From: Vicinamibacterales bacterium
Lineage (GTDB): Bacteria; Acidobacteriota; Vicinamibacteria; Vicinamibacterales; SCN-69-37
Assembly (NCBI GenBank): GCA_040902895.1
Contig: JBBDWL010000062.1
Coordinates: forward strand, 74,894 to 138,893
Direction of reading: 5' to 3'
Length of the DNA: 64,000 nucleotides
In this document: positions 23,212-63,061 of the stretch, piece by piece
Layout: each line of letters opens with the position of its first letter
Numbering within the stretch: the first letter of the stretch is position 1
The notes under the pieces: generated by a model
Told to the model about the DNA's origin: nothing
Databases searched by the model: none
The model's input: the letters and a program-made list of their open reading frames with translations, nothing else
Made by a program: the position numbers and the translations under genes

Positions 23212-25599
23212 GTGTCGCTCATCCGTGACATTGTTTATGCAGCGCGACTCTTTGCACGGCATAGAGTCGCGCTTGCAACCGCCCTAATCAGTCTGTCGAT
23301 CGCGCTCGGCTTTTGTACGGCCACCGTTGCGGTCGCTAATGCTTGGTTCTATCCCCGCCTAGGCGTTGCTGAGCCGACCTCACTCGCATGGGTGTCGGCG
23401 GCCCTTGAGTCGTCGGATGGCCTTCAACACGTATTTCCATATGCAGGTTTCGAGGCATTGCGCGCCGGCGTGCCTGACAAGGTTGCTGCCTTCGTGCCCG
23501 CGAGGGGCAGTCTACGGACTGACGACGGACTTGAAAAAGACGATGTTGCATTGGCTTTCGTCAGCGACCAGTTCTTCGATCTACTTGGAGCCCGACCCCT
23601 GCTAGGGCAGCTGCCAAGCAAGCCGGCTGCAGCCAACGACATCTACTCGGCGGTGCTGAGCCATGACGTGTGGTCCCGACTCTTCAACGGAGCGCCAGAC
23701 GTTGTCGGCAAGACGATCTGGGTTCGTGGAAAAGAATTCGTCGTGATCGGCGTCACTGGGCCCGCATTCGCCGGCCCGTCTCGCCTGCATCGTCCGGCAG
23801 TTTGGCTGTCGACCGCGGCGTTACCGCGACAAGTCGGGGCTGTGTTTCCCCAGATCTTGGTACGGCTGGAGACCGCCGGAGATAAGGCAAGGTTCCGGGA
23901 CCAGGCAGCGCGAAGCCTTGAGAGCGTGCGGCCGTTTTCGTCTCAGCCAGCAGGAACAATCAGAGTCGATGTGCGTGGAATCTTGGTGCCGACTGTGGAC
24001 CGGCGTGCCACGTCCGCGATGCCCGCCGTGTGGGCGCTGACTGCTGCGATGATGGTGGTCGCCATAGTTAATCTAGCAGGCTTTCTGGTTACGGTAGCAG
24101 CAAGTCGCCAACGCGAGATCGGGGTTCGCCTTGCCATCGGCGCGAGGAGAACGATGGTGTTCCGCCAGCTTGTCACCGAGAGTCTGTTGGTCAGCGCAAT
24201 CGGGGGGCTGCTCGGCTATCTCGCATCGCAGCTGTTCATACCTGTTTTTGAGTGGATGATCGATATTCCGTTAGGCGTCTCTCTGACTCCTGACATTCGT
24301 ACCTACAGCTTCTTGGTCGTTATTAGCTTGGCAGCAGCGATTCTGGCGGGGCTGGCGCCGATCAGGTACGCCTCCCGAGTGAAAATATCCGCCGCTTTGA
24401 ACGGCGACATCAGCTCTGTCCATCATTTTGCCCGGCCGGATCGTGCGCGTTCGGCTTTCGTTGGGCTTCAAGTCGCGATTTCAGTTGTCACAATCGTGTT
24501 GTCGACGCTTTGGACGCGAGGTGCAGAAAGAACGAGAGAAGCGGAGATCGGGTTCGATGCCCAACGCCTACTGGTCCTGAGAGGGCGACTAGTTGGCGGA
24601 ACCTGGAGCAATTCGGACGCTGATGGTTACTGGAAACAGGCGTCCACCCGGATTCAGGAAGTGCCTGATGTAGATGGAATTGCGCTTGCCCAGTACGTGT
24701 TTGGGGGTGGGTTTGAACGACAAAAGGTCCGCCTGCCGTCAGGAGCAAATTTGGTTCTCGCGAAGAATAGAACTTCGAGCAGCTACTTTCGTACTGCGCG
24801 GATACCGGTTCTCGCGGGACGAATCTACTCGGACCTTGATGCGGAAACTGGCGCTTCGGTCGTTGTCGTATCAGCCAAGGCAGCGAAGGAGATCTGGGGA
24901 AGTCCAGAGCGGGCGTTAGGAGCGACGCTTTCTCTGGTTGACAAGTCAGAGAAGCCCGCGGTCGTCATCGGAGTCGTTGACGACGTCGTGAGTACTAGTC
25001 TTCTGGAACTCTCGGCGCCCGTCGGGGTTGTGTACCGCCCGCTTTCCAATGAACTCTTGGCTGATGCCGCGATGATCATTCATGTGGAGCAACACTCGAA
25101 CGAGATGAAGCAAAGAATTGAAGCGGCCCTTCCAACATTCGATCCCCAGCGGACACCTCGGGTTATGCAATTGGGGAATGTGGTTTCGCAACAAGTCCGG
25201 CTAAGTCAGGTGCCCTCAAGAGTCGCGAGATTCGCCGCGACAGTTGTCCTAATACTGTCGATCGTTGGGCTTCACGGTCTGGTTAACCTGACCGTGCATC
25301 AGAAGGTCAGGGACATCGCGGTACGTGCCGCTCTAGGTGCAGACTCGATGGCCATCGTTCGATACGCCGCCTCTAGCGCCCTGAAGCCAGTTATCTGGGG
25401 TCTCGGTGCAGGCGTTATCGGCGCATTTGTCGCAGTGCAAATGACCACGGCATTGCTCTTCGGTGTGCCCGAAATCGATCCACAATCACTGATTTTAAGC
25501 GGAGGCCTATTGCTATTGGCTGGCCTGATTGGAATAGCGGCGCCGACGATCCGGGCCGTTCGCATCCAGCCAGCTGCGATTCTGAAGAGCTCCACTTGA
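23212..25599 (+). CDS. ADOP-type duplicated MacB/FtsX permease, no prefix domain, divergent and lower GC
   Basis: RDIVYAAR..., two FtsX modules (RQREIGVRLAIGA and RDIAVRAALGA), C-terminal RAVRIQPAAILK. Many A/T-ending codons. Confidence 0.85.
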   Translation: MSLIRDIVYAARLFARHRVALATALISLSIALGFCTATVAVANAWFYPRLGVAEPTSLAWVSAALESSDGLQHVFPYAGFEALRAGVPDKVAAFVPARGSLRTDDGLEKDDVALAFVSDQFFDLLGARPLLGQLPSKPAAANDIYSAVLSHDVWSRLFNGAPDVVGKTIWVRGKEFVVIGVTGPAFAGPSRLHRPAVWLSTAALPRQVGAVFPQILVRLETAGDKARFRDQAARSLESVRPFSSQPAGTIRVDVRGILVPTVDRRATSAMPAVWALTAAMMVVAIVNLAGFLVTVAASRQREIGVRLAIGARRTMVFRQLVTESLLVSAIGGLLGYLASQLFIPVFEWMIDIPLGVSLTPDIRTYSFLVVISLAAAILAGLAPIRYASRVKISAALNGDISSVHHFARPDRARSAFVGLQVAISVVTIVLSTLWTRGAERTREAEIGFDAQRLLVLRGRLVGGTWSNSDADGYWKQASTRIQEVPDVDGIALAQYVFGGGFERQKVRLPSGANLVLAKNRTSSSYFRTARIPVLAGRIYSDLDAETGASVVVVSAKAAKEIWGSPERALGATLSLVDKSEKPAVVIGVVDDVVSTSLLELSAPVGVVYRPLSNELLADAAMIIHVEQHSNEMKQRIEAALPTFDPQRTPRVMQLGNVVSQQVRLSQVPSRVARFAATVVLILSIVGLHGLVNLTVHQKVRDIAVRAALGADSMAIVRYAASSALKPVIWGLGAGVIGAFVAVQMTTALLFGVPEIDPQSLILSGGLLLLAGLIGIAAPTIRAVRIQPAAILKSST

Positions 25600-25622
25600 G
25601 ACGAGTATCGGGCCGGCAAAAA

Positions 25623-25656
25623 CAATCCGGCGCGCGCACAAGCGCGCCACGGATTG
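25623..25656. terminator. Hairpin between convergent genes
   Basis: CAATCC-GGCGCGC...GCGCGCC-AC-GGATTG. A short T-run (TTTTT) follows on the - strand. Confidence 0.5.
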
Positions 25657-25671
25657 CCGCCGATTGCAGGC

Positions 25672-26430: not shown

Positions 26431-26466
26431 CTGATATAGAACTACTATATCGGAGCCCTATATCAA
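26431..26466. promoter_or_regulatory. Putative PadR operator (class A)
   Basis: CTGATATAG-AACTA-CTATATCGG inverted repeat, plus an extra half-site CTATATCAA abutting the ATG. Confidence 0.7.
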
Positions 26467-26795
26467 TGCCTGAACGATCCACCGAGCTGCTGAAAGGCAC
26501 GCTCGATCTGCTGATTCTGAGAACACTCGAGCTCGCGCCTCGGCATGGCGCCGCCATCGCCGAGCGCATTGCGCAGACCACGCGCGGTACGTTCCAAATC
26601 AAGGCCGGCTCCCTGTTCCCCGCACTCCATCGCCTGGAACAGGAAGGCTGGATTGAAGGCGCGTGGGAAGTGTCGGCGGATGGCCGGCGCGTGAAGTCGT
26701 ACACGCTCACGCGGTCGGGCCGCAAACAGCTCCAGGCCGAGAAGGCCACGTGGGGACGCATCGCCGCCGCGATGGCGCAGGTCCTGGAAAGCTGA
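26466..26795 (+). CDS. PadR regulator, acidobacterial type (class A: LLxGTLDLLIL)
   Basis: ELLKGTLDLLILRTL, HG..IAERI, GSLFPALHRLEQEGWI, YTLTRSGRKQL. Confidence 0.93.
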   Translation: MPERSTELLKGTLDLLILRTLELAPRHGAAIAERIAQTTRGTFQIKAGSLFPALHRLEQEGWIEGAWEVSADGRRVKSYTLTRSGRKQLQAEKATWGRIAAAMAQVLES

Positions 26796-29443
26796 TGGCG
26801 CGCCGTCTGCTCCGCCGCCTCTCGAGTTTCCTGCGGACGTTCGTTCGCGGGCTCCAGCTCGATCGCGAGCTCGATGATGAATTGCGCGCCTATCTCGACC
26901 ACGAGATCGCGCGGCGCGTGGCCGCCGGTTCGAGTGCGGCTGAGGCGCGGAGGCTCGTGCTGGCCGAGGAAGGCGGCATCGAGCCGATCAAGGAACGCAC
27001 GCGCGCGGTCCGCTTTGGCTTCGGGCTCGCGACGGTACTTCAGGATTTGCGCTACGGCGCGCGCTCCATGGCACGTTCGCCGGGCTTCGCGCTGGTGGCA
27101 TGCCTCACGCTGGCTCTGGGGATTGGCGCGAACGTCGCTATGTTCACCGTCATGCGCTCGGTGCTCTGGCGCCCGCTGCCCTATGCGGACGGCGAGCGGC
27201 TGGTCATTCTCGACTCCACCTGGCGCGGTCTGCCGCACGCCGGCCTCTCGCCCCGCGAAATCTCCGACTTGAGGCGCGACAGCCGCACGCTCTCGCATCT
27301 CGCCGTCGTCAACGGTGTGGGCGCGCACGTCGAGATCGACGGCGAAGTCGAGTTCGTCCCGGCGGCGAGCGTCAGCGCCGATCTGTTGCCGTCGCTCGGG
27401 GCCAGGCCCGCGCACGGCCGTCTGTTCGACGCGCGCGACGACTCGCTGCACCCGGACGGCCAGGTGCGCAGCGTGATCTTCAGCGACGCGCTGTGGCGGC
27501 AACGGCTCGGCGCCGATCCCGGCGCGATCGGGCGGTGGATCACCGTCAACAACACGCCGCGTCAACTGATCGGCGTGCTTCCGGCCGACTTCCAGGTGTT
27601 TCTGCCCGCGTCGACCAGTGTGCAGGAAGCGACGCACGTCTGGTTTCCGACGTCCATCAACCCGGCCGAGAACTTCAGAGGCAACGGCGCCATCGGACGC
27701 CTGCGCGCGGGCGTGACGCTCGACGATGCGCGGCGGGAGCTCGAGGTGTTTGCCGCGCGCTTCGCATCCGACCGGCCGGAAATCTATCGCGACGCGGCAG
27801 CAACCTTCCGCGTCGATGCTCTTCGGCAGGCGCTGGCAGCCGATATCGACGCGGGCCTGTGGATGCTCGGTGCGGCCGTAGCCTTCGTACTGCTGGTGAG
27901 CTGTGTGAACATCGCCAACCTGACCCTCGCAAGATCGTCTGGACGCGCGCGCGAGCTCGCGGTGCGCCGCGCGCTGGGCGCCACCCGTGTGCGGATCGTA
28001 CGTCAGCTCCTTACCGAGAGCCTGCTGCTCGCCGCGATTGGAGGCGCCGGAGGACTCGTGATCGGGCGCCTTGGCCTCCAACTGCTCGACTGGCTGCGAA
28101 CGACGGATTTGCCGCGCCAGTCGCAGGTCGGCCTTGACGGGCAGGTGACGTTGTTCTCGATCGGCATCACGCTCGCGGCCGGCGTGATCTGCGGCGTACT
28201 GCCGGCGTTCCGCTTCGCCGCAGGCGACGCGCAGGCCCTCAAGGCCGGGCGAGCCGATTCCCCGGCGCGCGGACAACGGCGTCTGCAGCGCGGGCTCGTG
28301 ATCGCGGAGATCGCGCTGTCAATCGTCCCGCTGGTTGCCGCAGGTCTCATGGTGCGCTCGTTCGTCAATCTCACTCAGGCGCCCCTCGGCTTCAGGCCGG
28401 ACGGTATCGTCACCGCCTGGATGCCGCTGAGTTTTCGCCAGTTTAGCGATGTCGACGCACGCGTCCGCGTGCACGCCGCCGTGCTCGATCGGATCCGTGA
28501 GCTGCCGGGCGTTCATGACGTCAGCGCCGCGAGCCCGCCGCCATTCCACGATTTTCAGGTTCAGATGCTTGAACGTTATGGCCGCGCCGGCGACACAGGT
28601 CCCGGATCGCATGCCACGCGGCAGAGCGCGCTGCCCGGATACCTGCGTGTCGTGGGCACGCGGCTCGTGGCGGGCCGCGAGTTCACGGACGATGACCTGC
28701 GGCACAAGCGACAAGTCGTCATCATCGACGAGCGGATCGCGCGGGAGTTGTGGCCGTCGGGGGCGATTGGCCAGCAGATGTGGGTCGGAGCCGGCAGGCG
28801 CGCGAGCCCGCTCGAAGTGATCGGCGTGACCGAGCCTGTGCGCGTGGCGAATATCGGGGACGATTCGACGCCGCATTTGTTCGTCCCGTATCACAAGTTC
28901 ACCATCGACATGGTCCTCGCCATCAGGACCGACACGCCGGCTGAGGCACTCGCGCCCGTGCTGAAGCGCATTGCCGCCGAAGCGGGAACGAGCCGCGCGG
29001 TAATGGATGTCTGGCCGCTTCGCGACTATGTGGACAAGTCGATGGCCGACACGCGCTTCATGATGCTCGTGCTCACTGCTTTCGCCGGCCTGTCCATGCT
29101 TTTGGCGGCAATCGGTCTCTACGGCACGCTGTCGTACCTCACATCGCAGCGCTCGCGCGAATTCGGTGTGCGCCTCGCCCTCGGCGCGAGCAGCCGGCAG
29201 ATTCTGCGTCTCGTGGCCGGAGAAGGCGTGGTGTTGACGGCGATTGGCGCAGCCGCGGGACTGGCAGGAGCCATCGCGGCGGCGCGCGCACTCAGAGGCC
29301 TCCTCTATGGCGTCGAGCCCCTCGATCCGGCAACGCTGGCCGCCGTGACGGCCGCGGTCGCGGTGCTCGCGGTCCTTGCGAGCCTCAAGCCGGCGTGGTC
29401 GGCGAGCAGAGTCGATCCAACGCGCGCGCTGCGGGCGGATTGA
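26795..29443 (+). CDS. ADOP duplicated permease with prefix-1-type N-terminus
   Basis: TGATG coupling to PadR. DRELDDELRAYLDHE, QDLRYGAR, TLALGIGAN, two FtsX modules. Confidence 0.92.
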   Translation: MARRLLRRLSSFLRTFVRGLQLDRELDDELRAYLDHEIARRVAAGSSAAEARRLVLAEEGGIEPIKERTRAVRFGFGLATVLQDLRYGARSMARSPGFALVACLTLALGIGANVAMFTVMRSVLWRPLPYADGERLVILDSTWRGLPHAGLSPREISDLRRDSRTLSHLAVVNGVGAHVEIDGEVEFVPAASVSADLLPSLGARPAHGRLFDARDDSLHPDGQVRSVIFSDALWRQRLGADPGAIGRWITVNNTPRQLIGVLPADFQVFLPASTSVQEATHVWFPTSINPAENFRGNGAIGRLRAGVTLDDARRELEVFAARFASDRPEIYRDAAATFRVDALRQALAADIDAGLWMLGAAVAFVLLVSCVNIANLTLARSSGRARELAVRRALGATRVRIVRQLLTESLLLAAIGGAGGLVIGRLGLQLLDWLRTTDLPRQSQVGLDGQVTLFSIGITLAAGVICGVLPAFRFAAGDAQALKAGRADSPARGQRRLQRGLVIAEIALSIVPLVAAGLMVRSFVNLTQAPLGFRPDGIVTAWMPLSFRQFSDVDARVRVHAAVLDRIRELPGVHDVSAASPPPFHDFQVQMLERYGRAGDTGPGSHATRQSALPGYLRVVGTRLVAGREFTDDDLRHKRQVVIIDERIARELWPSGAIGQQMWVGAGRRASPLEVIGVTEPVRVANIGDDSTPHLFVPYHKFTIDMVLAIRTDTPAEALAPVLKRIAAEAGTSRAVMDVWPLRDYVDKSMADTRFMMLVLTAFAGLSMLLAAIGLYGTLSYLTSQRSREFGVRLALGASSRQILRLVAGEGVVLTAIGAAAGLAGAIAAARALRGLLYGVEPLDPATLAAVTAAVAVLAVLASLKPAWSASRVDPTRALRAD

Positions 29444-29491: not shown

Positions 29492-32152
29492 TCAGTCGGC
29501 GCGCAGCACTTGAGCCGGATCTACGCGGCTGGCGCGCACGGCGGGGATCAACGATCCGGCCGCCGCCGTGGCGACGACGGCGCCGACGGCCAGGAACCAG
29601 ATCGTGGGTTGATAGACGGTCACGTTATAAAGGTGCGACTCGAGGAAGCGCGCGAGCCAGGCCGCCACGACGACACCGGCAACAAGGCCGGCGCCCACGG
29701 TGGCGGCCTCGCCCGCAACCAGCGCCGTCACGACGCCCTCGCGCGTCGAGCCCAGCGCCATCCGAATGCCGACCTCTCGCGTCCGGCGCGCCGCCGACAT
29801 CGCGATGACGCCGAGAATGCCGGCGCCGACCAGGACGAGCGCCGCCGCGCCGAACGCGCCGAAGAGCCAGCCGAGAAAGCGGCGCGGCCGAATCGTATCG
29901 GCGAGGATGTCGGTCGCCGTCTGCGCGCGGACGGCGGTGAGCGCTGGCGCCGATGCCTCCGCAAGCCGGACGACTTCCGAGAGCACGCGTCCGGTGGCGC
30001 CGGGCGCTCGAATGGCGACAACAGGCGCGGTCTCGAAATTCAGCGCCGCGTACGAACCGTAGACGACCGGATATGGATCGACGTCGAGCGCGTTGTATCG
30101 CACGTCGGCAACGATTCCGACCACTGTGTGCGCACGGCGGGGCTGACTGGGATCGGGCTTCGCATTCGGCAGCATCGCCTGCGTGTACAGGTCACGTCCA
30201 ATCGCATCGCCGTCGTGCCAGAAGGAGCGAGCCGCCGCCTGACTCACGGCTATCACCGGAGCGCCGCGATCGAGCTCGCCATCGGCCGGAAAACGGCCGG
30301 CGATGAGAGACAGGCCTGCGGCCTCGAAGAATCCGCCCGTGACTGGCAGCCCTATGTGATGGCGAGTGTCATCGGACAGCGAAAACGCGACGTTCTCGAT
30401 ATGTGATCGATCGAGCACGTGCGCATCGATTGCCCCGGCCGCACGGACGCCCGGAATGGATCGCACGCGGCGAAGAAACGCTGCGAGCTCTTCTGCCACG
30501 CCCGGCGCGGGTTTTCCAAACACGTGCCGGCCGTCCGGCGGAATCCGCAGCTCGACGAACGACAGATCCTCGGGATCGATGCCCGGCTCGTTCCGCCAGG
30601 CCTGTGCAACGCTGCCCACGAGCAATGACCCGCCGACAGCGAGGACGAGCCCGACCGCGACCTGCGCGGCAACCGCGAGCCGGCGTCCGACGGACGCTGC
30701 GCGCGGCGTCGATGTGACCGCCGCGCCCGCCACGGGCGCGGCGAGTCCAAGCGCGCGTCTGATCGGCCAGATTGAGACAAGCAGGACCGACACAGTCGTG
30801 GCGAAGAGCGCGAATGCGGCCACGCGCCAGTCGATGACCGGCGTCTTGAGCAGCAGGAGATTGCCGGGCATCACGTCGAGCGCGACGCGCAGCAGCCAGG
30901 GCGCGGCAACGAGGCCAAGGCCCGCGCCTGACGCCACGAGCACGGCGTTCTCGATCAACACGGACCGCGCGATGTGCCACGTGCCCGCGCCTATCGCGCG
31001 GCGAAGGCCGATCTCGCGCGCGCGATCGAGGCTGCGCGCCGCCATCAGGCCCGACACGTTCAGACAGGCGATCAGCACGAGCAGCGCCGCCGCGAGAAAC
31101 GCCCCCGAGAACACGCGCGCGGAGCCCTCCGCCATCCGTTCGCCCAGCGGATGCAGCGTCGCGCGATCGAAGGGACCGAGGTATCGCCTCCCGTCCGGCC
31201 TGAGGTTCCGGCCGGCGGCGTCAGCAGCCATCACCGCTTCCAGCCGATCCCGCACTGCCAAAGCAGACTCCCCGGCGGGCAAGCGCATGACGACTTCGAG
31301 GGAGCGTTGGGTGGGACGGGCCGCCATGCCGAGCAAGGGCAACAGAATCTCTGCGTGAACCTCGACGCTCGGAAAGACGAAGCCTTCTGGCATCACGCCG
31401 ACGACTTCCCCGGTGCCGCCCGCGCGAGGATCGACCGCGAGACGGCGTCCCAACACCTGCGGATCGCCTGCGAAGCGCTGCTGCCACACGTGGTGGCTCA
31501 CGATAATCGGTATGACCCGCCCGACTTCGCCGAAATGCTGTGGGGTGAAGCCGCCCATCATCGGCCTCACGCCAATCACGTCGAAGAACTCCGGTCCAAT
31601 CATCGCGGCTGCGAGGCCGGTTTGGTTCACGGCTTCGGCGCCGCTCGTCCGATTGCCGTCGAAACCTGTGAACTCGACGTCGGGCATGGCGGTGCGCCAG
31701 ACGTCCAGCTCACGCAGGCTCACCGACGGCGTGCCGCGAATACGTTCGGTAAAGCCAGGCTCGAGCGAGTACAACTCGTGCGCCCTGGGATACGGCAGCG
31801 GCTTGAAGAGCACGCCGTCGACGACGGCGAAGACGGTGGTGGCGAGCGCCATGCTCAGCGCGATGACGCCGATGACGGCGGCGGCGTACCACGGCGCCCG
31901 GCGGAGGGAACGCAGCGCGTGTCGCAGGTCACGGCCATGGCCGCCGGCGTTGAACGCGCTGGCCAGGCGGCGTATGCCGGCAAGGGCACGTGCCGCCGCG
32001 ACGGCGGTCAGCATCGTGAGCGCCGTCCGCCAGTACCATGCGGTGCCGGCGGCCGTGCCGCGCGCGGATCGCCTGAGGCGTTCTTCATGCAGATCGCCGG
32101 CAATCGAGTCGGCCAGGTCGTCGCCGGTCAGCCAGCGCAGCAGTCTGAGCAT
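29492..32152 (-). CDS. ADOP duplicated permease with prefix-2-type N-terminus
   Basis: GGAGG ribosome binding site before ATG 32152. SIAGDLHEE...WYWR, RDLRHALRSL, two FtsX modules, RASRVDPAQVLRAD. Confidence 0.9.
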   Translation of the reverse strand: MLRLLRWLTGDDLADSIAGDLHEERLRRSARGTAAGTAWYWRTALTMLTAVAAARALAGIRRLASAFNAGGHGRDLRHALRSLRRAPWYAAAVIGVIALSMALATTVFAVVDGVLFKPLPYPRAHELYSLEPGFTERIRGTPSVSLRELDVWRTAMPDVEFTGFDGNRTSGAEAVNQTGLAAAMIGPEFFDVIGVRPMMGGFTPQHFGEVGRVIPIIVSHHVWQQRFAGDPQVLGRRLAVDPRAGGTGEVVGVMPEGFVFPSVEVHAEILLPLLGMAARPTQRSLEVVMRLPAGESALAVRDRLEAVMAADAAGRNLRPDGRRYLGPFDRATLHPLGERMAEGSARVFSGAFLAAALLVLIACLNVSGLMAARSLDRAREIGLRRAIGAGTWHIARSVLIENAVLVASGAGLGLVAAPWLLRVALDVMPGNLLLLKTPVIDWRVAAFALFATTVSVLLVSIWPIRRALGLAAPVAGAAVTSTPRAASVGRRLAVAAQVAVGLVLAVGGSLLVGSVAQAWRNEPGIDPEDLSFVELRIPPDGRHVFGKPAPGVAEELAAFLRRVRSIPGVRAAGAIDAHVLDRSHIENVAFSLSDDTRHHIGLPVTGGFFEAAGLSLIAGRFPADGELDRGAPVIAVSQAAARSFWHDGDAIGRDLYTQAMLPNAKPDPSQPRRAHTVVGIVADVRYNALDVDPYPVVYGSYAALNFETAPVVAIRAPGATGRVLSEVVRLAEASAPALTAVRAQTATDILADTIRPRRFLGWLFGAFGAAALVLVGAGILGVIAMSAARRTREVGIRMALGSTREGVVTALVAGEAATVGAGLVAGVVVAAWLARFLESHLYNVTVYQPTIWFLAVGAVVATAAAGSLIPAVRASRVDPAQVLRAD

Positions 32153-32203
32153 CTCGTTCCTCCGGCTCCAGGCCGATCGTGTTCCCGGAGCCCGGCTCAC
32201 GCG

Positions 32204-32542
32204 TCAGATTTCGGATCCACGGACGCCGTCCCACAGCGCCGTCAGCGCGCGCCGCGATGCCCGCAACGCCGCCAGCGCGGACTTCGTCACGCGATAGCAC
32301 CGCTTCGCGCGGCCGCCGCGTTCGGGCGTGGGCCCGGTGAGGTACGACGACAGCAGCCCTTTCTTCTCGAGCCGGTCGAGTGTCATGTACACGGCGCCGC
32401 GCGACGCGCGCCGATTTGTCCGCGTCTCGAGCTCCGCCAGTACATTCAGGCCGTATGCATCGTCATCCCGCCCGGCACAGAGCACGGCCAGCAGCACCAT
32501 CTGCTCGAATTCGCCCAGGGCCGGCGGCGTCTCTCGCCCCAT
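32204..32542 (-). CDS. PadR regulator (class B: LGEFEQ)
   Basis: LGEFEQMVLLAVL, AYG, RGAVYMTLDRLEKKG, PERGGRAKR. Confidence 0.92.
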   Translation of the reverse strand: MGRETPPALGEFEQMVLLAVLCAGRDDDAYGLNVLAELETRTNRRASRGAVYMTLDRLEKKGLLSSYLTGPTPERGGRAKRCYRVTKSALAALRASRRALTALWDGVRGSEI

Positions 32543-32550
32543 GCCGCGGA

Positions 32551-32637
32551 CCTTACAGCAACAATGTAGGACAAATCAAGTTCTCGGCCTGCCGCGCGTA
32601 GGCTTTCTACACAACATGTAGTAGGATTCCTACACAA
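32551..32637. promoter_or_regulatory. Operators between back-to-back PadR genes
   Basis: TTACAGC-AAC-AATGTAG lies next to the class B gene. GTAGGCTTTCTACACAA (32598-32614) and GTAGGATTCCTACACAA (32621-32637), both TAG-N5-CTA palindromes, lie next to the class A gene. Confidence 0.7.
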
Positions 32638-32993
32638 TGGCTCACAAGCCGCCGTCCCGTGTCGAGCTCCTGCGCGGCACCCTCGATCTGCTGATCCTCC
32701 GTACGCTGCTGCCGGGTCCAAGTCATGGTCACGCTATCGCCAAACATATTCAGCGGACCTCGGACGACCTGCTGAAGGTCGAAACCGGCTCTCTCTACCC
32801 CGCGCTCTACCGGCTCGAAGCCAATGGGTGGGTCGCAGCGTCCTGGGAGCTGTCCGAGAAGGGCAAGCGCGCCCGCTACTACCGAATCACGCCCAAGGGA
32901 CGAAAGCAGCTGGCCAGCGAACAGTCGAAATGGGACGCATTCGCGCGTGCCATGGGATTGCTGCTGAAGCCACTCGGTGAGGAGGGACGATGA
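32637..32993 (+). CDS. PadR regulator, acidobacterial type (class A)
   Basis: ELLRGTLDLLILRTL, HGHAIAKHI, GSLYPALYRLE, YYRITPKGRKQL. Confidence 0.93.
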   Translation: MAHKPPSRVELLRGTLDLLILRTLLPGPSHGHAIAKHIQRTSDDLLKVETGSLYPALYRLEANGWVAASWELSEKGKRARYYRITPKGRKQLASEQSKWDAFARAMGLLLKPLGEEGR

Positions 32994-38599: not shown

Positions 38600-38751
38600 G
38601 CCGAAAGGCCCCGCGGCGTGGGTTTCCTGCGGCTCGTGCGTCATTAATGTAGGAAACACACTTGACTTGCCGTGGTATCTGCGCGCCGCTGCTCAGCGCG
38701 AATCGGCAGGCTACCACGGCAAGTCAAGTGGTTTCCCGGATGATAGAGCGC

Positions 38752-46569: not shown

Positions 46570-46818
46570 ATGGGGACAAAGACGATCTCTCTCAAGGACG
46601 AAGCGTACCGGCGACTCCGCGCGGCCCGCCGCTATCCAAACGAGTCGTTCAGCGAAGTGGTCCTGCGGGCGACGTGGCCCGAGGACACGATCACCGCCAG
46701 AGAGCTCCTTCACCGGCTGAGGACCAGCGTCCCGCACTTTTCGGACGAGGAATTGGATCGCATCGACGAGATGAAGCGGCGCGACATGCCCCCGGAGGAC
46801 AAATGGGCCGGGCGCTGA
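46570..46818 (+). CDS. vapB: VapB-type antitoxin (DUF217-like family, common in archaea)
   Basis: MGTKTISLKDEAYRRL...ESFSEVVLR. Overlaps the PIN gene. Confidence 0.82.
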   Translation: MGTKTISLKDEAYRRLRAARRYPNESFSEVVLRATWPEDTITARELLHRLRTSVPHFSDEELDRIDEMKRRDMPPEDKWAGR

Positions 46819-51236: not shown

Positions 51237-51719
51237 ATGCGTGTATGCGGAATCGTGATGGCGGCAGTCGCCTTCCTGCCGGTCTGCCTGGCTGCTCAGG
51301 CCTCCCTGCCGACTCGCCAGACGCTCACGCTGGAGGCGGCGCGTCGCATCGCCGCCGCGGCCGAAGCCGAAGCCGTCCGTCACAACTGGGTGGTCTCGAT
51401 CGCGGTCGTCGACGACGGCGGGCACCTGATGGTCTTTCTTCGGATGGACGGCACAAAGCTGGTCGCCACCGACATCGCCATCCGCAAGGCGCGCACCGCC
51501 GTTTACTTCCAGGGGCCGACCAAGGGCCTCGAAGACGAAGTGAGCGGCGGCCGTACGGCGCTTCTCCCGATCGAGGGCTTCATGCCGCTCGAGGGCGGCG
51601 TGCCCCTGATGGCCAACGGCCAGCTCGTCGGGGCGATTGGCGTCAGCGGCGTCACCGGCGCCGAGGACGCGCAGTGCGCGCAGGCCGGCGCCGCCGCGCT
51701 CAAGCCAGGATCTCGCTGA
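51237..51719 (+). CDS. GlcG/HbpS-family heme-binding protein with signal peptide
   Basis: SIAVVDDGG.L..F.RMDG, AIRKARTA, EGGVPL, GAIGVSG...EDAQCA. AGGAG ribosome binding site. Confidence 0.88.
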   Translation: MRVCGIVMAAVAFLPVCLAAQASLPTRQTLTLEAARRIAAAAEAEAVRHNWVVSIAVVDDGGHLMVFLRMDGTKLVATDIAIRKARTAVYFQGPTKGLEDEVSGGRTALLPIEGFMPLEGGVPLMANGQLVGAIGVSGVTGAEDAQCAQAGAAALKPGSR

Positions 51720-55870: not shown

Positions 55871-58534
55871 CTACTCACCCCGCAAAGCGTCGACAGGATC
55901 GACGGATGACGCCCGGCGCGCCGGCAGATAGCTCGCCAGAAACGCCACGCCGAGCATCAGTGCCGACATCGCGACGAACGTCGCGGCGTCGAGCGGCTCC
56001 ACGCCAAACAGCAGCGACTCGAGGAGACCCGTCAGGCCGAGCGCGGCGGCAATGCCGATCGCCACGCCGATGAGCGTGACCCGGCTGCCCTGCAGCACGA
56101 CCATCCGCCGCACCGCCGGCGCGGCGGCGCCCAGCGCCATGCGCAGCGCGATCTCACGCTTGCGCTGCGACACGACATACGAGAGCACGCCGTAGACGCC
56201 GACGGCCCCGAGAATCACGGCGAGACCGGCCGCAATGGCCAGCAGCAGCATCGTGAAGGACGTCGGCGCGAGCGATCGCTTGGCGAGGCCCTCCAGCGTG
56301 AAGATGCGATAGAACGGCGCGCCCGGCGCCACCTCGCGCAGCAGGATCCGGATGTCGCCCGCGATTGTGTCGGCGCGCGCGGTTCTCACGACGTACGCCG
56401 GCGAGCCCACACCCCACGAGGTGGGGGTCGGGCCGACCATCGGCAGGTACACGAGCGGGTCCTTCTTGTCCTGCCGGTAGCTGTCCACTCGCACGTCGCC
56501 GACCACGCCGACGACGGTCGTCCATGGATCGTCCGGATCCGTCCCGTACTGCAGGCGCTTGCCGATGGGGTTCTCGCCCGGCCAGAGCTGCTCTGCCGCG
56601 GAGCGCGAGACGATGACGTTCGTAGCTCCGCCCATGTGATCGCTCGGCTGGAAGGGGCGGCCGCCCACGAGCGGGATCTTCATCGTCTGGAAGTAGTCGC
56701 CAGCCGTGAACGTCATCATGAGGGGCGGCAGCGTCCTGCCCGCGGCCTTCGACTGCTCGGTCGCGAACCGTGCGGGACTGGCGCCCTCGTCGAGCGGCAG
56801 CTCGTTGACGAACCCGACCGATTCGACGCCCGGCAGGCCGCGCAGACGCTCCATGAGGCCTTCGTGAAAGCGGGCGAACGCCGGCCCGCTGTTGAAGCCC
56901 GGCCCCGACGGCGCGACCTGAAACGTGAAGATGTTCTTCGTGTCGAAGCCCAGATCGACATGGCTGAGCGTCCAGAAGCTGCGCACGAGCAGACCGGCTC
57001 CGACCAGCAGCACGAGGGCCGCGGCCGTCTGGAGCGCGACGAGCCCGTTCCTGGCCAGCCGTCCCTGGAGCGTCCCGCCGCGCCCCGCCTGCTTCAGATC
57101 GTCGACCCGCGCCGGTCGCGAGAACCCGATCGCCGGGATCAGCCCGAACAGGCACGCCGCCAGAATCGCCAGGCCCACCGCAAATGCCAACGTGGCGCCG
57201 TTGAGCGCGATCAAATCGAGATTGGGGACAGTCGTCGGCGCGCCCCGGACGAAGAGTGGCACGAGGATCGCCGCCACGATCGCGCCGCCGGCGGCGCCCG
57301 CCGCCGCGAGCAGCAGCGCCTCGGCCGTGAGGGATCGAATCAGGCCTGCGCGGCCTGCGCCGAGGGCCTGGCGCACGGCAATTTCCCGCCGGCGGCTTTC
57401 CGCGCGGGCCGTGAAGAGGTTCGCGACGTTCGCGCACGCGATGAGGAAGACGACGCCAACCGTGCCGAAGACGATCCAGATCGTTTTCGACGCGCGGCCG
57501 ACGAGCTGCTCTTCCAGGGTGCGGACGACGGGCTGGTGTTTCTCGATGATCCGAGCGTAGTTCGCGTTGCCGCCGAAGCGCTCCGGCAGCCGCTTCGCAA
57601 CCGTTGCGAGCTGCGTCGTCAACTCCTCCAGAGTCACCCCGGGTTTCATCCGCGCGACGAGGTTGAAGTTGAAACCGCCCGGCTTGATTTGGCTCTCATC
57701 CGCGATCGCCGCGCGCGCCCATGCCGAGTACTGCGCGTTGGGGAAACGAAACTCGGGCCCCATGACACCGATGATTTCCCGCCGCGCGCTTCCGATCTCA
57801 ATCGACTTTCCGACGACCGACGGGTCGCTGGCGAACCAATCCCGCCACAGATGGTGGCTGATCAACGCCACCTGCGCGCGCTTCGTGTCATCCGCTTTGG
57901 TCGGAAGCCGGCCGATGACCGGCTGCACGCCGAGCGTCTGGAACAACTCCGTCGTCATTTGAACCGCGAAGAGACGATCGACATGGTCGGGCGCGCGGAA
58001 CGTCGTCTGGCCGGTACCAAACATGCCGATATTCTCAATCTTGTCGGCATCGTCTCTATAGGTGACGTAGAACTCCGCCCCGAGACCGGCCTCACCCCGC
58101 AGCTCGGTTCCGGGCGCCGTGGCGCGAATCGAGACGAGCCGATCCGCGTTTGGATACGCGAGCGGGTTGATCAGCACCGCATCGACCACGCTGAAGATCG
58201 CCGCGCAGGCGCCAATCGCCAGCGCGAGCGTGACGACGACAACGGCTGTGAAGCCGGGCGCGCGCACCAGGCGCCGCGCGGCGTGGCGGAAATCGCCCGT
58301 CCAGCCTTCGACAAACCCTTTCATACGACCTCTCCTGTTTTCTTCGACCGTAAAGCGGCCGGCGAACGACAGTGCTTCGCGCCAGTACCAGAGCCGCGCG
58401 CGGGAGACGCCGACCTGCGCAGAACGCCGCTGATAGACCTCGTCGAGCTCCGCGGCGATGTGCTCCCGCACGTCGATGGGCAGCGCGCGCGTCAGCAATC
58501 GGCGCGCGAGGCGCGGCGGCTGCGGAGGCGGCAT
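55871..58534 (-). CDS. ADOP duplicated permease with prefix-2-type N-terminus
   Basis: TGATG coupling to PadR. PPRLARRLL...IAAELDEVY...LWYWRE, DFRHAARRL, PARRASSVDP. Confidence 0.92.
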   Translation of the reverse strand: MPPPQPPRLARRLLTRALPIDVREHIAAELDEVYQRRSAQVGVSRARLWYWREALSFAGRFTVEENRRGRMKGFVEGWTGDFRHAARRLVRAPGFTAVVVVTLALAIGACAAIFSVVDAVLINPLAYPNADRLVSIRATAPGTELRGEAGLGAEFYVTYRDDADKIENIGMFGTGQTTFRAPDHVDRLFAVQMTTELFQTLGVQPVIGRLPTKADDTKRAQVALISHHLWRDWFASDPSVVGKSIEIGSARREIIGVMGPEFRFPNAQYSAWARAAIADESQIKPGGFNFNLVARMKPGVTLEELTTQLATVAKRLPERFGGNANYARIIEKHQPVVRTLEEQLVGRASKTIWIVFGTVGVVFLIACANVANLFTARAESRRREIAVRQALGAGRAGLIRSLTAEALLLAAAGAAGGAIVAAILVPLFVRGAPTTVPNLDLIALNGATLAFAVGLAILAACLFGLIPAIGFSRPARVDDLKQAGRGGTLQGRLARNGLVALQTAAALVLLVGAGLLVRSFWTLSHVDLGFDTKNIFTFQVAPSGPGFNSGPAFARFHEGLMERLRGLPGVESVGFVNELPLDEGASPARFATEQSKAAGRTLPPLMMTFTAGDYFQTMKIPLVGGRPFQPSDHMGGATNVIVSRSAAEQLWPGENPIGKRLQYGTDPDDPWTTVVGVVGDVRVDSYRQDKKDPLVYLPMVGPTPTSWGVGSPAYVVRTARADTIAGDIRILLREVAPGAPFYRIFTLEGLAKRSLAPTSFTMLLLAIAAGLAVILGAVGVYGVLSYVVSQRKREIALRMALGAAAPAVRRMVVLQGSRVTLIGVAIGIAAALGLTGLLESLLFGVEPLDAATFVAMSALMLGVAFLASYLPARRASSVDPVDALRGE

Positions 58535-58872
58535 CACCCGATCTTTTCGAGCCGGGGATCGAGCCCGCTCCACATCTGATCGACGGCCTGCCGCGACTCA
58601 CGCAGCACGTGCATGCCGGCGCGCGTGACCTTCACGCAGCGGCGGGCCTTGCCGCCGCGCTCCTGGGTGTGCTCGCTCATCCAGGATTCCACGAGGCCCT
58701 TCTGTTCGAGCCTGCGAAGGGTGATGTACACGGCGGCGCGGGCCACATTCCGCTTCGTGCGGCGCTCGATCTCGTCGACGATCGGCACGCCATAGACGTC
58801 GCCCGTGCCCGCGAGGCGGATGATGGCAAGCAGCACCAGCTGTTCGAATTCGCCCAGGCTTTCGCGGGTCAT
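58534..58872 (-). CDS. PadR regulator (class B: LGEFEQ)
   Basis: LGEFEQLVLLAI, YGVPI, AVYITLRRLEQKG, ERGGKARR. Confidence 0.92.
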   Translation of the reverse strand: MTRESLGEFEQLVLLAIIRLAGTGDVYGVPIVDEIERRTKRNVARAAVYITLRRLEQKGLVESWMSEHTQERGGKARRCVKVTRAGMHVLRESRQAVDQMWSGLDPRLEKIG

Positions 58873-60011: not shown

Positions 60012-62708
60012 TCAGTCGGCGCGAAGCGCCACCGCCGGATCGATGCGCGTCGCGCGGCGAATCGCGGGCCATACGGCTAGGACCGCGGCCGCGGTCAGTC
60101 CCGTTCCAGCGACCGTAATCGTCAGCGGATCGCGGGCCGAGACGCCGAACAGATACGCGGCGACCAGGCCCGAGAGAGGCGTGATGAGCAGGCCGCCGGC
60201 AGCGAGTCCGCCGGCCGTCACGGCTGCGATGCGGCGCAGCATCGCAGTGGTGATGTTCGCTCGCGTCGCGCCGAGGGCCGCGCGAATGGCGAGCTCGCGC
60301 ATACGCTCGGTCACGAACTGCGCGACCACGGCATAGAGTCCGGTGAGCGCGAGCAGCGCGGCGATCGCGCCGATGACGAGGCTGAGGCGGCTCAATACGC
60401 GCTCCTGCGCAATCTGCTCGTCCGCTTCGCGCCGCAGAGGCACAATGTCGTCAACGGGCACCGCCGGCGCGGCGTCGCGGGCGGCTGCTCGCGCGAACGC
60501 CGCGGCACGATCGAACGGCACGCGAGGACGCAGCATGACGGTGGCAATCCGCGAGCGCCCGAACGGTTCATATGCGAATGGAAGAATCCCTTCGCGCACG
60601 TCGGATCCCACCGCGTTGCCGACGACGCCGACGACGGGGCGCGTCAGCCAGGTCTGCCCCCGCGCGGTGCGGCGCGGCGTCAGGATCGTCTGTCCAACCG
60701 CCGGCTCCATTCCAAACAGTCGGCGCGCCAGCGCCTCGTTGAGGATGATGGGCGAGCCCTCGCGGTGCGGCACCATCGATTCGGCCGCGGAGAACGTGCG
60801 CCCCTGAATCACGGGAATGCCCAGGACCGCGAAGTAGCCGCCGGTCACGTGGTGCGAGGCGATCTTGAGGGCCTTCGCGTCATCCTGCCCCGGCAGGCGC
60901 ACCGTGCTTCCCAGCGTACCGCCGAGCGGCGAGAAAAACGCGAACGCCACACGTTCAATCGCCGGCTCGCTCGCGATTCGATCGTGCAGCCTCTGCATCG
61001 TCGTCGCCGTGGCGGCATCGTCAAGCCCCGCGCGCGTCGGCCGAAACGAAAATGCGAGCACGGCGTCGGGCGAGAAGCCGAAGTCGATCGACTGCAGCCG
61101 GTGCACGCTCTGCGCCAGCAGCGCCGCCGTGACGAGAAGCGTGAAAGAGAGTGCGACCTGCGCGCCGGCAAGCGACGTCCGCAGCCAGCCTGCGTGCCGC
61201 GTCGTGCTGCGTCCACCTGCAGCCATGCCGGTGCGCACATCCGCGCGCGACGCGAGCAGCGCCGGCACGAGCGCAAAGAGCGCGATGGTCGCCGCCGATA
61301 CCGCGCCGCCGAACGCGGCGGCGCGCCAGTCGAGGCCTAGTCCCTCGAGCACCGGCAGATACGAAAGCAACCGGCTCGTACGAAACAGCGTCGTGAGCGC
61401 GGCGGCAATTACGAGACCGAGGGCGCAGGATCCGGCTGCGAGCACCGAGGCCTCGACAAGCAGCTCGCGCATCAATCGCCCGCGGCTGGCGCCGAGCGCG
61501 GAACGTACCGCGAGATCCGGCCTGCGGCGCAGGTGGCGCGCGAGCATCAGGTTCGCCGCATTGGCGCAGGCCAGCACGAGAAGCAACGCGACGCCGGCGA
61601 GCATGACGCGAAACACGGCCGTCAAACGCGCGCGCGTCACTCCGATGCCGTCGCTGAGGCCGGCGAAGGCGAATGGCCAGAAGGTGCTCTCGCCGATGCG
61701 CTGCTCACCGACCGAGCGAAACGCCGCCATGAGCTGCGCCTGAGCGACCTCGATCGACGCCCCCGGCGCGAGTCGTCCCACCATGGACGAGTGCGCGCTC
61801 TGACTGGTCGTCCGCGTCTCGGAGGGATCGAGCGTACGTTTCGAGGCGTACGCGAGCCATCCGTCGTGGTCATCGAGCCGATCGAGTCCCTGAAATGCAC
61901 GAGCTACGCCGATGATCTCGAATGCGTGCCCGCTCACGAACACCCGCCGGCCGATGACGGCTGGATCCTCGTTGAACCGACGCCGCCAGAGCCGTTCGCT
62001 GATGACGAGAAGGTCGAGGCCTGTGGACTCGTACTCGTCCGCGGTGAACAGACGACCCAGTCTCGAACGCACGCCGAGCACGTCGAAATAGCCGCGCGTC
62101 ACCGTGACGAGCCGGGCCATGCGCGGCGGCTCGCCTGGATCGACTGCCAGCGGCAGCTCGCTTGAGCGCCATGCCGCGAGGCCGGAGAGCGCCGGTGTCT
62201 GATGGCGCATCGCCTCGAGGTGCGCGTGTGACACCGACCCGCGGTGAGGCGTCGCCGCGTCGATCTGCGTGTACACGCTGATCAATCGGCCCTCGTCCAT
62301 CACGCCGGGCACGGGCCGGAGCATCGCGTAGTTGACGACCGCATACGTGGCGGTGGCGGCGCCCGTGCCGAGCGCGAGCGTGAAAACGACGGCAAGCGCC
62401 GATGCCGGCTCGCGCCGCACGCTGCGAAGCGCCAGCCGGACGTCCGGGCCCAGGTTCCAGGAACGGACGATCGGATGCAATGGCGGCTGCGGATTCCCAG
62501 GCGCGTGCGAGAAGCGGGCGCCTACACGCAGGATGTGCCACGCGAGCCACAGATCGCGACGGAGACCGCGACGCCGGTCGCGCGCAGTCTCCTCGGCGAG
62601 ATCGCGACCGACCGAGTCGCGCCAGTCGCGTGGCACAAGTGCAAGAGCCGCGCGTGCAAGCAGCCCGAGGCGATCTGGCGCCGGTGTGCGCGAATCCCGC
62701 CCGCTCAC
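60012..62708 (-). CDS. ADOP duplicated permease with prefix-2-type N-terminus
   Basis: GTGA overlap with PadR. LVPRDWRDSVGRDLAEE...LWLAW, DVRLALRSVRR, RRATRIDPAVALRAD. Confidence 0.9.
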   Translation of the reverse strand: MSGRDSRTPAPDRLGLLARAALALVPRDWRDSVGRDLAEETARDRRRGLRRDLWLAWHILRVGARFSHAPGNPQPPLHPIVRSWNLGPDVRLALRSVRREPASALAVVFTLALGTGAATATYAVVNYAMLRPVPGVMDEGRLISVYTQIDAATPHRGSVSHAHLEAMRHQTPALSGLAAWRSSELPLAVDPGEPPRMARLVTVTRGYFDVLGVRSRLGRLFTADEYESTGLDLLVISERLWRRRFNEDPAVIGRRVFVSGHAFEIIGVARAFQGLDRLDDHDGWLAYASKRTLDPSETRTTSQSAHSSMVGRLAPGASIEVAQAQLMAAFRSVGEQRIGESTFWPFAFAGLSDGIGVTRARLTAVFRVMLAGVALLLVLACANAANLMLARHLRRRPDLAVRSALGASRGRLMRELLVEASVLAAGSCALGLVIAAALTTLFRTSRLLSYLPVLEGLGLDWRAAAFGGAVSAATIALFALVPALLASRADVRTGMAAGGRSTTRHAGWLRTSLAGAQVALSFTLLVTAALLAQSVHRLQSIDFGFSPDAVLAFSFRPTRAGLDDAATATTMQRLHDRIASEPAIERVAFAFFSPLGGTLGSTVRLPGQDDAKALKIASHHVTGGYFAVLGIPVIQGRTFSAAESMVPHREGSPIILNEALARRLFGMEPAVGQTILTPRRTARGQTWLTRPVVGVVGNAVGSDVREGILPFAYEPFGRSRIATVMLRPRVPFDRAAAFARAAARDAAPAVPVDDIVPLRREADEQIAQERVLSRLSLVIGAIAALLALTGLYAVVAQFVTERMRELAIRAALGATRANITTAMLRRIAAVTAGGLAAGGLLITPLSGLVAAYLFGVSARDPLTITVAGTGLTAAAVLAVWPAIRRATRIDPAVALRAD

Positions 62709-63037
62709 TTCGGAGGCTCCAGGACGGTGCCCGCCGACAGACGGCTGATGCCACGCTGCGCCGCGCGAAGCGACGCCACCCCTGCGGGACGGGCGCGGAA
62801 CAATCGGCGCGCTTTGCCGCCTGGCTCGCCGGTCGGATCCGAAAACCACGATTCAACCAGCTCCTTGGCCTCGAGGCGATCGAGGGTGATGTAGACCGAC
62901 CCGCGCGAAAGCCGAACGCCGGTCTCGCGCGCGATCAGCTCGCGAATCGGCACGGCATACGCCTCGCTGCTGAGGCGCAGGACGGCCAACAGCACGAGTT
63001 GCTCGACTTCGCCCAGCCGTGACGGGTCAGTGGCCAT
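62705..63037 (-). CDS. PadR regulator (class B: LGEVEQ)
   Basis: LGEVEQLVLLAVL, AYAVPI, GSVYITLDRLE.K, PGGKARR. Confidence 0.92.
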   Translation of the reverse strand: MATDPSRLGEVEQLVLLAVLRLSSEAYAVPIRELIARETGVRLSRGSVYITLDRLEAKELVESWFSDPTGEPGGKARRLFRARPAGVASLRAAQRGISRLSAGTVLEPPK

Positions 63038-63038
63038 G

Positions 63039-63061
63039 GAATGCTTATATTATTAGCATTC
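63039..63061. promoter_or_regulatory. Putative PadR operator (class B)
   Basis: GAATGCTTAT-ATT-ATTAGCATTC, 10-bp arms with 1 mismatch, abutting the start codon. Confidence 0.72.

Follow-up and report, generated by a model that had tools for sequence, protein, structure and literature searches.

The closest described relative of the system analyzed here is a two-gene dyad built around HAAS, the helix-turn-helix (HTH)-associated alpha-helical signalling domain, which, according to the available text of the paper that defines it, always adjoins a standalone PadR-like winged HTH protein (Ravi et al., 2024, mSystems; PMC11237479). The same text lists fusions of HAAS to FtsX-like transmembrane (TM) and MacB/PCD domains, describes a core of three helices, the third of which has a kink at a characteristic conserved GxP, and proposes that a conformational change of HAAS upon a signal releases or reconfigures the PadR protein, as an alternative to two-component systems (PMC11237479). 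In the available text of a second study, the Listeria PadR protein LltR represses an operon that starts with the gene for the DUF1700 membrane protein lmo0600 (Hauf et al., 2019; PMC6624303). The locus considered below is a stretch of 64,000 nucleotides (nt), hereafter the window, from a Vicinamibacterales bacterium of the Acidobacteriota (contig JBBDWL010000062.1, positions 74,894 to 138,893), which encodes seven ADOP permeases (P1 to P7) and five PadR proteins (R2, R3, R4, R6 and R7, each numbered after the permease with which it is paired). All five permeases that carry an N-terminal extension, or prefix, ahead of the permease core have an adjacent standalone PadR, which is the gene architecture of the HAAS-PadR dyad. 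The data assembled here support the view that prefix and PadR constitute a functionally coupled, class-matched module, and we judge it somewhat probable, on balance, that the two genes of each pair make up an autoregulated operon of the HAAS-PadR kind whose prefix docks the cognate PadR.

The original prediction for this DNA described seven duplicated ADOP permeases, five PadR proteins and a co-variation between the class of the PadR and the class of the prefix. The genes were recovered by profile searches: all seven permease open reading frames (ORFs) align end to end with the ADOP model TIGR03434 and contain two stretches each of PF12704 (MacB_PCD) and PF02687 (FtsX) per chain, and the five PadR ORFs, which encode 109-118 amino acids (aa), match PF03551 and lie on the same strand as, and upstream of, P2, P3, P4, P6 and P7 (Table 1). 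Four permeases (P2, P4, P5 and P6) score above the curated TIGR03434 cutoff of 622.3 bits, and the three that score below it (P1, P3 and P7) are still aligned over model positions 1-3 to 802-803. Within the window, genome-wide scans brought up no ADOP or PadR beyond these.

All of the motifs that had been quoted for the two classes are present in the translations. The class A PadRs carry LLKGTLDLLIL (R2) and LLRGTLDLLIL (R4) and, on their scores against TIGR03433 (curated cutoff, 101.8 bits), are members of that family, and the class B PadRs carry LGEFEQ (R3 and R6) or LGEVEQ (R7) and, by the same profile comparisons, are PadRs (PF03551) of a subfamily other than TIGR03433. Downstream of class A, the prefixes contain a helix motif (ELDDELRAYL in P2 and ELREELEFHL in P4); downstream of class B, they read IAGDLHEE..WYWR (P3), IAAELDE..WYWR (P6) and VGRDLAEE..WLAW (P7). 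P1 and P5, the two permeases without a PadR, were correctly said to lack a prefix, since both start right at the QD/RD-x-x-YA motif before the first TM helix (TM1) with no N-terminal extension. The claim of overlapping stop and start codons in four of the five pairs also agrees with the junctions, given the starts chosen: these are TGATG for R2/P2 and R6/P6, ATGA for R4/P4 and GTGA for R7/P7, and the R3/P3 junction consists of a 3-nt gap followed by GTG.

On profile evidence, both prefix types of the window are existing curated models: the E-L-x-x-E-L prefix is perm_prefix_1 (NCBIfam NF038403; cutoff, 30 bits) and the WYWR prefix is perm_prefix_2 (NF038404; cutoff, 35 bits), referred to below as prefix_1 and prefix_2. 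NF038403 matches P4 with 46 bits and P2 with 29.3 bits in hmmscan or 35.5 bits in a six-frame genome search, and NF038404 matches P6 with 45.1 and 50.3 bits and P3 with 24.6 and 29.4 bits, the latter under its cutoff. The P3 prefix scores an E value of 1.3e-16 on a prefix_2 hidden Markov model (HMM) of our own, in whose alignment it is itself a row. P7 gave no match to NF038404 at E<=0.01, and an initial assignment of its prefix to a third class by single-linkage BLAST was dropped; a prefix_2 HMM built without P7, mainly from other genomes, places it weakly in prefix_2 (E 8e-5, 14.8 bits).

Matches to these models also occur in other settings. NF038403 scores above its cutoff in the control genomes of Bacillus subtilis and Deinococcus radiodurans, and both models match ORFs of 172-410 aa; a further match lies on contig C138 of the genome of origin (216791-216910). 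At least some of these ORFs look like frameshifted ADOP fragments, because matches to the ADOP core are split over two frames at several such loci.

The class matching seen in the window extends to the whole genome assembly (4.58 Mb in 163 contigs), in which an HMM based on the seven permeases of the window identified 112 full-length ADOP ORFs, amounting to 299 kb or 6.5% of the genome, plus 34 partial ones. A same-strand PadR lies directly upstream of 47 of the 112; the PadR ends 168-287 nt before the start of the permease core in 46 of these 47 cases, and an extension of at least 59 aa is present in 46 of the ADOPs with a PadR directly upstream. Conversely, none of the 40 ADOPs whose upstream frame is shorter than 40 aa has an upstream PadR. 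When prefix type was tabulated against upstream PadR type, the check proposed with the original prediction, prefix_1 was found behind 21 of the 24 PadRs that score at least 99 bits on TIGR03433 and behind none of the 23 other PadRs, and prefix_2 behind none of the 24 and behind nine of the 23 (three over the cutoff and six weaker). The remaining three TIGR03433 pairs have an extension without an NF match, and none of the 24 lacks an extension. Among the 65 ADOPs with no PadR directly upstream, three carry prefix_1, two carry prefix_2, 20 have an extension without an NF match and 40 have no extension. Not one of the 30 model-classified pairs in this genome is cross-class.

The same regularity appears in the less tidy parts of the census. 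Six further prefix_1 matches lie in partial ORFs, and a TIGR03433 PadR precedes each of the six. Nine prefix-bearing ADOPs lack a directly upstream PadR, and eight of them share a same-strand cluster with one, either as later members of tandem arrays or with the PadR just downstream, with scores that fit the matching class. When the extensions were clustered blind by BLAST, three groups emerged, with 26, 15 and 9 members. The last of these is a third prefix type, marked by an F-R-x-E-Y-G motif, which occurs mostly with a third PadR type (motif L-L-P-L-S..F-H-I-L; 40-54 bits on TIGR03433) on contig C62 (24013-37056, outside the window) and on contigs C66, C82, C81 and C89. This third prefix of the genome shows a weak relationship to prefix_2 (hhalign E 2e-4), and neither NF038403 nor NF038404 matches it. 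One cluster of the third type consists of three prefix-bearing ADOPs, then a PadR, then two prefix-less ADOPs, so a PadR-first gene order is not obligatory.

Comparable patterns were found in other members of the phylum, where prefix_2 was present in eight of 61 genomes sampled, three of which, from two other families, were analyzed more closely. In these three genomes a TIGR03433 match of at least 95 bits lies within 450 nt upstream of 43 of 49 prefix_1 matches, counted among the best 150 of 330 TIGR03433 matches (the lowest of these scoring 47.9 bits); three of the six exceptions have a same-strand TIGR03433 PadR of 144-158 bits at a distance of about 2.5 kb, as judged by eye from the coordinates. 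No upstream TIGR03433 match was found for any of 42 prefix_2 matches among the matches listed, and a PadR HMM of our own placed a PadR on the same strand, with its end 100-330 nt ahead of the core, at 21 of 30 prefix_2 loci, where all of these PadRs are by eye of the LGExEQ type. The predicted co-variation of PadR class and prefix class therefore holds in the genome of origin and, among the matches listed, in three others, with no cross-class pair. In addition, relatives of R4 with 73-95% identity occur in metagenome-assembled genomes of Vicinamibacterales, Terriglobia and Bryobacterales, and among 80 R4-like loci, which represent one orthologue group and not 80 independent tests, the order PadR, prefix_1, ADOP core is found in 73 (two others run off the end of a contig). 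This identity is high for a large paralogous family and suggests that R4 belongs to one conserved, specific circuit.

On trees of the permease cores that leave the prefix out, prefix state is scattered nearly as much as it would be with shuffled labels. On a 112-row core tree (91 rows labelled) prefix state changes 37 times, compared with 42.8 +/- 2.2 changes after shuffling (2 of 500 shuffles as low), and among 50 prefix-bearing rows there are 18 changes, compared with 20.7 (49 of 500 as low). A 42-row IQ-TREE tree of prefix_1 and prefix_2 cores has 12 class changes versus 13.1 after shuffling, and at least three of them are forced by well-supported branches. An approximately unbiased test rejects a single clade of prefix_1 cores (delta lnL 197.85, p 2.4e-6; LG+G4, quick search, with groups set by prefix class and a FastTree of the cores seen beforehand). 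Since the core tree does not follow class, PadR and prefix travel as one module, and on several occasions this cassette was lost, gained or moved with respect to the body of the permease while staying matched. Gain and loss are also joint: 16 independent contrasts between the presence of a prefix and that of a PadR gave about 14 concordant pairs and 0.4 opposite ones (median p 2.4e-4). Within class A (n=23), distances correlate more between PadR and prefix (r 0.46, p 5e-4) than between PadR and core (0.22) or prefix and core (0.17).

Inverted repeats upstream of the PadR genes provide a further feature of the module. Perfect repeats precede R2, R4 and R7 in the window, and these may be PadR operators; additional TGTAG/CTACA repeats occur in the divergent R3-R4 intergenic region, which would serve as a promoter region (Table 1). 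Across the genome, 17 of 46 PadR genes have perfect inverted repeats with arms of at least 7 bp no more than 45 nt upstream of the start, compared with 2.2% in shuffled sequences and with three of 38 regions upstream of PadR-less ADOPs. They sit 0-27 nt before the PadR starts (1-14 nt for the three in the window), several adjoin TTGACA-like and TATAAT-like hexamers, and by eye their sequence differs between paralogues. This arrangement suggests private operators that overlap the promoters of short-leader or leaderless transcripts.

The prefixes are likely to belong to the HAAS superfamily, which comprises PF22564, DUF1700 and DUF1048, judging from profile matches in which Pfam HAAS (PF22564) is, weakly, the top family by member matches for both prefix alignments (five of 24 prefix_1 members, best E 1.3e-4; three of 22 prefix_2 members, best E 0.012). 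The predicted structure of the P4 prefix (pLDDT 83.1) comprises four helices, at residues 3-38, 43-54, 57-69 and 71-79, and the conserved glycines of the alignment are G40 and G55. When the prefix_1 model was compared with known structures, Foldseek found no match in the PDB at E<=0.001 (best E 2.7), and a wide VIA-align search returned only generic helical proteins (best Z 7.3). For so small a helical domain, such fold searches are uninformative about HAAS either way.

Complex prediction, which had also been proposed as a check, was applied to two copies of R4 with residues 1-80 of P4, using a 24-row alignment for each. The cognate combination scored 0.55 (runs of 0.53, 0.56 and 0.55, with at least 34% agreement in contacts and a partner pLDDT of at least 53), and the best of three controls scored 0.00. 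In calibration, 58 of 80 solved complexes and two of 110 mismatched pairs attained the mark for a positive, and scores up to 0.60 contained seven of those 80 solved complexes and both passing mismatches. This result is weak support for a complex of an R4 dimer with the P4 prefix.

A mechanism consistent with these observations would start from a small PadR that acts as a winged-helix repressor on a palindrome overlapping its own promoter, with the permease translationally coupled to it. Ahead of TM1 the permease would present a helical prefix of about 60-90 residues, which by analogy with MacB topology would be cytoplasmic. The ATPase domain of MacB occupies the same position ahead of TM1. The prefix would dock the cognate PadR; a periplasmic or membrane signal, sensed by the divergent MacB-like periplasmic domains, would alter the prefix by way of the FtsX-fold helices; and the PadR would be held or released, moving between DNA and membrane and thereby shifting expression of its own operon. 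Prefix_1 would act with TIGR03433 PadRs and prefix_2 with LGExEQ PadRs, with a third type of pair elsewhere in the genome, and this matching would supply the partner specificity that insulates about 50 paralogous circuits per genome from one another. The alignment columns of the periplasmic domains are less conserved (0.11-0.31) than those of the TM segments and cytoplasmic loops (0.35-0.48), which would fit diverse ligands or diverse substrates.

A broader version of this proposal, which we offer only tentatively and hold to be improbable as a whole, is that Acidobacteriota contain dozens of insulated one-step transmembrane circuits, about 50 of them in this genome. Each would run an ATPase-less, internally duplicated MacB-type permease in reverse, passing a periplasmic event on mechanically to a cytoplasmic prefix by which a private PadR is held or released; crosstalk would be blocked by docking class (at least three) together with paralogue-specific operators, and the cassette would have been grafted repeatedly onto different sensor bodies.

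Several results weigh against reading each pair as a docking operon. Literature searches found no experimental binding for any HAAS-PadR pair. The matches of the prefixes to HAAS are far under the Pfam threshold, the P4 and P6 prefixes of the window gave no match to HAAS at E<=5, no conserved GxP motif is visible in either prefix alignment, and the prefix_1 profile has barely any similarity to that of prefix_2 (hhalign E 0.006 over 20 columns). Neither prefix nor PadR is found in 40 of the 112 ADOPs, and a reading as sensors therefore cannot account for every member of the family. Thirteen of the 23 non-TIGR03433 pairs have an extension that is matched by no curated prefix model and one has no extension; one PadR, on contig C62 outside the window, stands across a 68-nt gap from an ADOP without a prefix; and five of the 80 R4-like PadRs have no ADOP downstream. 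The R4-P4 complex score falls within the weak band of the tool. Independent class contrasts number just four on supported branches (eight on all branches), all concordant (p 0.125), and in class B (n=12) the PadR-prefix correlation is no better than the PadR-core one, with all three correlations at about 0.27. Finally, PadR and prefix are contiguous DNA, so that one duplication or recombination event moves both.

The last four of these points, namely the complex score, the few class contrasts, the class B correlations and the contiguity, also favor the alternative that survives best, which we regard as possible, though unlikely. Linkage alone would then account for the pattern: the PadR would be an ordinary autorepressor that controls the downstream permease gene and detects a cytoplasmic ligand on its own, and the prefix would have a PadR-independent role, for example as a helix close to the membrane with a regulatory or stabilising function in place of the lost ATPase domain. 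The class co-variation would reflect only joint duplication or recombination of the PadR gene and the adjoining first 250 nt of the permease gene. Phylogenetic co-variation is also expected from linkage alone because PadR and prefix are contiguous, with the PadR stop and the permease start overlapping or abutting, and the available text on LltR and lmo0600 provides an example of a PadR that controls adjacent membrane-protein genes without shown contact (PMC6624303). However, a prefix that served only the permease should often outlive its PadR, whereas the two are gained or lost together in about 14 of the 16 contrasts; that a prefix almost never persists without a PadR in the same cluster is the strongest point against pure linkage. 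No cross-class pair occurs in the genome of origin or, among the matches listed, in the three others, despite at least three forced class switches. In addition, the PadRs are close to the length of their profiles (75 positions for PF03551 and 101 for TIGR03433), which would leave little sequence for a separate ligand domain, and the pairing of prefix and PadR recurs with other membrane domains in the available text on HAAS (PMC11237479).

A second alternative, for which we see rather little chance, is that ADOPs are working transporters or mechanotransmission machines that draw on an unlinked shared ATPase or on another source of energy, and that contact between prefix and PadR reports flux to transcription, with no external ligand being sensed. 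BceAB with BceS is a precedent for flux sensing. The full MacB-like architecture is kept twice in each protein, conservation is highest in the columns of the TM segments and cytoplasmic loops, and the 40 ADOPs without a PadR module suggest an activity of their own. Set against this, none of the seven ADOPs of the window has a MacB-type ATPase next to it. As the original prediction held, no MacB-type ATPase or adaptor was found within the window, where the only two ABC ATPases are one of the sugar-uptake type and a fused ABC_membrane exporter at 9 kb from P6. PF00005, the ABC ATPase domain, is present in none of the seven ADOPs, and the MacB model NF007826 aligns with them via its permease part only (model positions ~352 to 648). 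The lack of an associated ATPase is part of the definition of the TIGR03434 family.

Chance, or a start-codon artefact of long GC-rich ORFs, which could be argued from stop-to-stop ORFs in DNA of 65% GC often running upstream of the true start and from the 20 PadR-less ADOPs with an extension of at least 40 aa and no recognisable prefix, has virtually no probability left, since it is refuted by the matching of prefix and PadR across this genome and others, with prefixes that are recognised by curated and independently built HMMs and with coupled starts at the junctions.

The preferred reading, a docking operon of the HAAS-PadR kind, thus differs from the original prediction in its claim to novelty. 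What had been presented as a candidate family of membrane sensors and anti-repressors is, as far as the available text of the HAAS paper goes, covered by the published dyad with its FtsX/MacB-PCD fusions (PMC11237479), and its prefixes are NCBIfam models, so it is not a candidate for a new one. The class-matched, coupled module at the center of that prediction is supported; as a description of ADOPs in general it is not, given those that lack the module. Features that we have not found in print are the strict class matching, the third class, the PadR-after-ADOP order, the incongruence with the permease core and the paralogue-specific palindromes. The available text of the HAAS paper has no mention of class-specific pairing, of paralogues per genome or of private operators (PMC11237479), and the rule that prefix_1 goes only with TIGR03433 was not found in a literature search whose coverage left most subscription journals outside.

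Table 1. Permease, PadR and repeat features of the window, followed by neighboring genes (positions refer to the window).
Feature	Position	Strand	Remarks
P1, ADOP permease	23212..25599	+	TIGR03434 over residues 3-793, 457.3 bits; without prefix and PadR
R2, class A PadR	26466..26795	+	TIGR03433 131 bits; PF03551 E 4.7e-22
P2, ADOP permease	26795..29443	+	TIGR03434 762.7 bits; perm_prefix_1 at residues 14-69
P3, ADOP permease	29492..32200	-	TIGR03434 522.8 bits; perm_prefix_2-like N-terminus, residues 19-70; GTG start
R3, class B PadR (LGEFEQ type)	32204..32542	-	PF03551 E 5.6e-11; TIGR03433 23.3 bits
R4, class A PadR	32637..32993	+	TIGR03433 142.2 bits
P4, ADOP permease	32990..35728	+	TIGR03434 876.5 bits; perm_prefix_1 at residues 13-64
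P5, ADOP permease	36024..38525	+	TIGR03434 from residue 5, 824.6 bits; without prefix and PadR
P6, ADOP permease	55871..58534	-	TIGR03434 786.8 bits; perm_prefix_2 at residues 6-58
R6, class B PadR	58534..58872	-	PF03551 E 1.2e-10; TIGR03433 31.3 bits
P7, ADOP permease	60012..62708	-	TIGR03434 609.8 bits; divergent prefix_2-like N-terminus
R7, class B PadR (LGEVEQ)	62705..63037	-	PF03551 E 6.4e-8; TIGR03433 19 bits
Perfect inverted repeat, candidate operator	26433..26451	+	7-bp arms, 5-nt spacer; ends 14 nt before R2 start
R3-R4 divergent intergenic region	32543..32636		94 bp; further TGTAG/CTACA repeats
Perfect palindrome, candidate operator	32621-32633		6-bp arms, 1-nt center; ends 3 nt before R4 ATG
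Perfect inverted repeat, candidate operator	63039..63061	-	7-bp arms, 9-nt spacer; ends 1 nt before R7 ATG
Putative plant-polysaccharide use locus	969-20481		
Sugar ABC operon	19735-23189		
Sugar-uptake type ABC ATPase	19735-21249		
ECF-type sigma factor and following ORF	38662-40208	+	sigma factor matches Sigma70_r2 and r4_2
Fused ABC_membrane exporter	44542-46512		
PIN-domain ORF	46674-47201	+	
DUF1501 and PSCyt1/PSCyt2/PSD1 genes	51700-55724	-	
PIN-domain ORF	63510-63935	-	

P1 starts 22 nt past the end of a sugar ABC operon on the same strand, so that co-transcription of the two is possible. The ATPase gene of this operon ends 2 kb before P1, and its product was considered as a cognate ATPase of P1 and rejected, because the operon is a complete uptake system that has its own BPD_transp_2 permease and Peripla_BP_4 binding protein next to the double ABC_tran ATPase. 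Upstream of the ADOP region lies what looks like a locus for the use of plant polysaccharides, with arabinofuranosidase genes (GH127 twice, Alpha-L-AF_C), GH31, an aldose epimerase and genes for TonB-dependent or outer membrane beta-barrel proteins. An ECF-type sigma factor gene follows directly after P5, and its stop codon overlaps the start of an ORF with a weak match to OEP; the sigma factor and the OEP-like ORF are another envelope-signalling unit adjoining the ADOP cluster. Elsewhere in the window, a DUF1501 gene and a gene with PSCyt1/PSCyt2/PSD1 (DUF1549/DUF1553, planctomycete-type cytochrome) form a two-gene set that is widespread and uncharacterised, and there are two PIN-domain ORFs that resemble VapC-type toxins.

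In soil Acidobacteriota, few unexplained paralogous families are as large as the ADOPs. Should about half of these permeases be sensors that act on private PadRs, they would constitute a major signalling repertoire in a phylum that is genetically hard to study, and they would illustrate how paralogous circuits are insulated from one another in nature. The rule of class matching also makes the published HAAS-PadR hypothesis testable, by comparison of cognate with swapped pairs.

Comparison with known systems places this locus near several of them. The NCBIfam models TIGR03434, TIGR03433, NF038403 and NF038404 match the window proteins directly, and the classes of the original prediction are these models, even though three window permeases, three PadRs and two or three prefixes score below the curated cutoffs. 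Like the HAAS-PadR dyad, each pair consists of a small standalone PadR beside a membrane protein with a short alpha-helical N-terminus; unlike it, the prefixes match Pfam HAAS only below threshold and have no evident GxP kink in the alignments analyzed here. As with LltR and lmo0600, where the available text describes a PadR directly upstream of, and repressing, a DUF1700/HAAS membrane-protein operon, the repressor gene comes first, whereas the membrane domain of that protein is a different one, and the text presents a single system with no swarm of paralogues and reports no protein contact (PMC6624303).

With the type VII ABC systems MacB, FtsEX and LolCDE, the ADOPs share FtsX-fold TM domains and the MacB periplasmic core domain. 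Those systems transmit movement across the membrane without passage of a substrate, and the BceAB permease communicates with a regulator, BceS. In contrast to MacB-type transporters, the ADOPs of the window are internally duplicated single chains without a fused or adjacent nucleotide-binding domain, and in contrast to MacB and BceAB the cytoplasmic partner would be a repressor and the signal would pass from outside to inside. In the BlaR1-BlaI and MecR1-MecI systems and in anti-sigma/ECF pairs, a membrane sensor controls a small DNA-binding protein encoded beside it, by proteolysis or by sequestration of the sigma factor. The folds involved there are unrelated to those of the PadR-ADOP pairs, and the ADOPs of the window have no protease domain, but the proposed logic is alike, in that a membrane sensor would control the availability of a DNA-binding protein encoded next to it.

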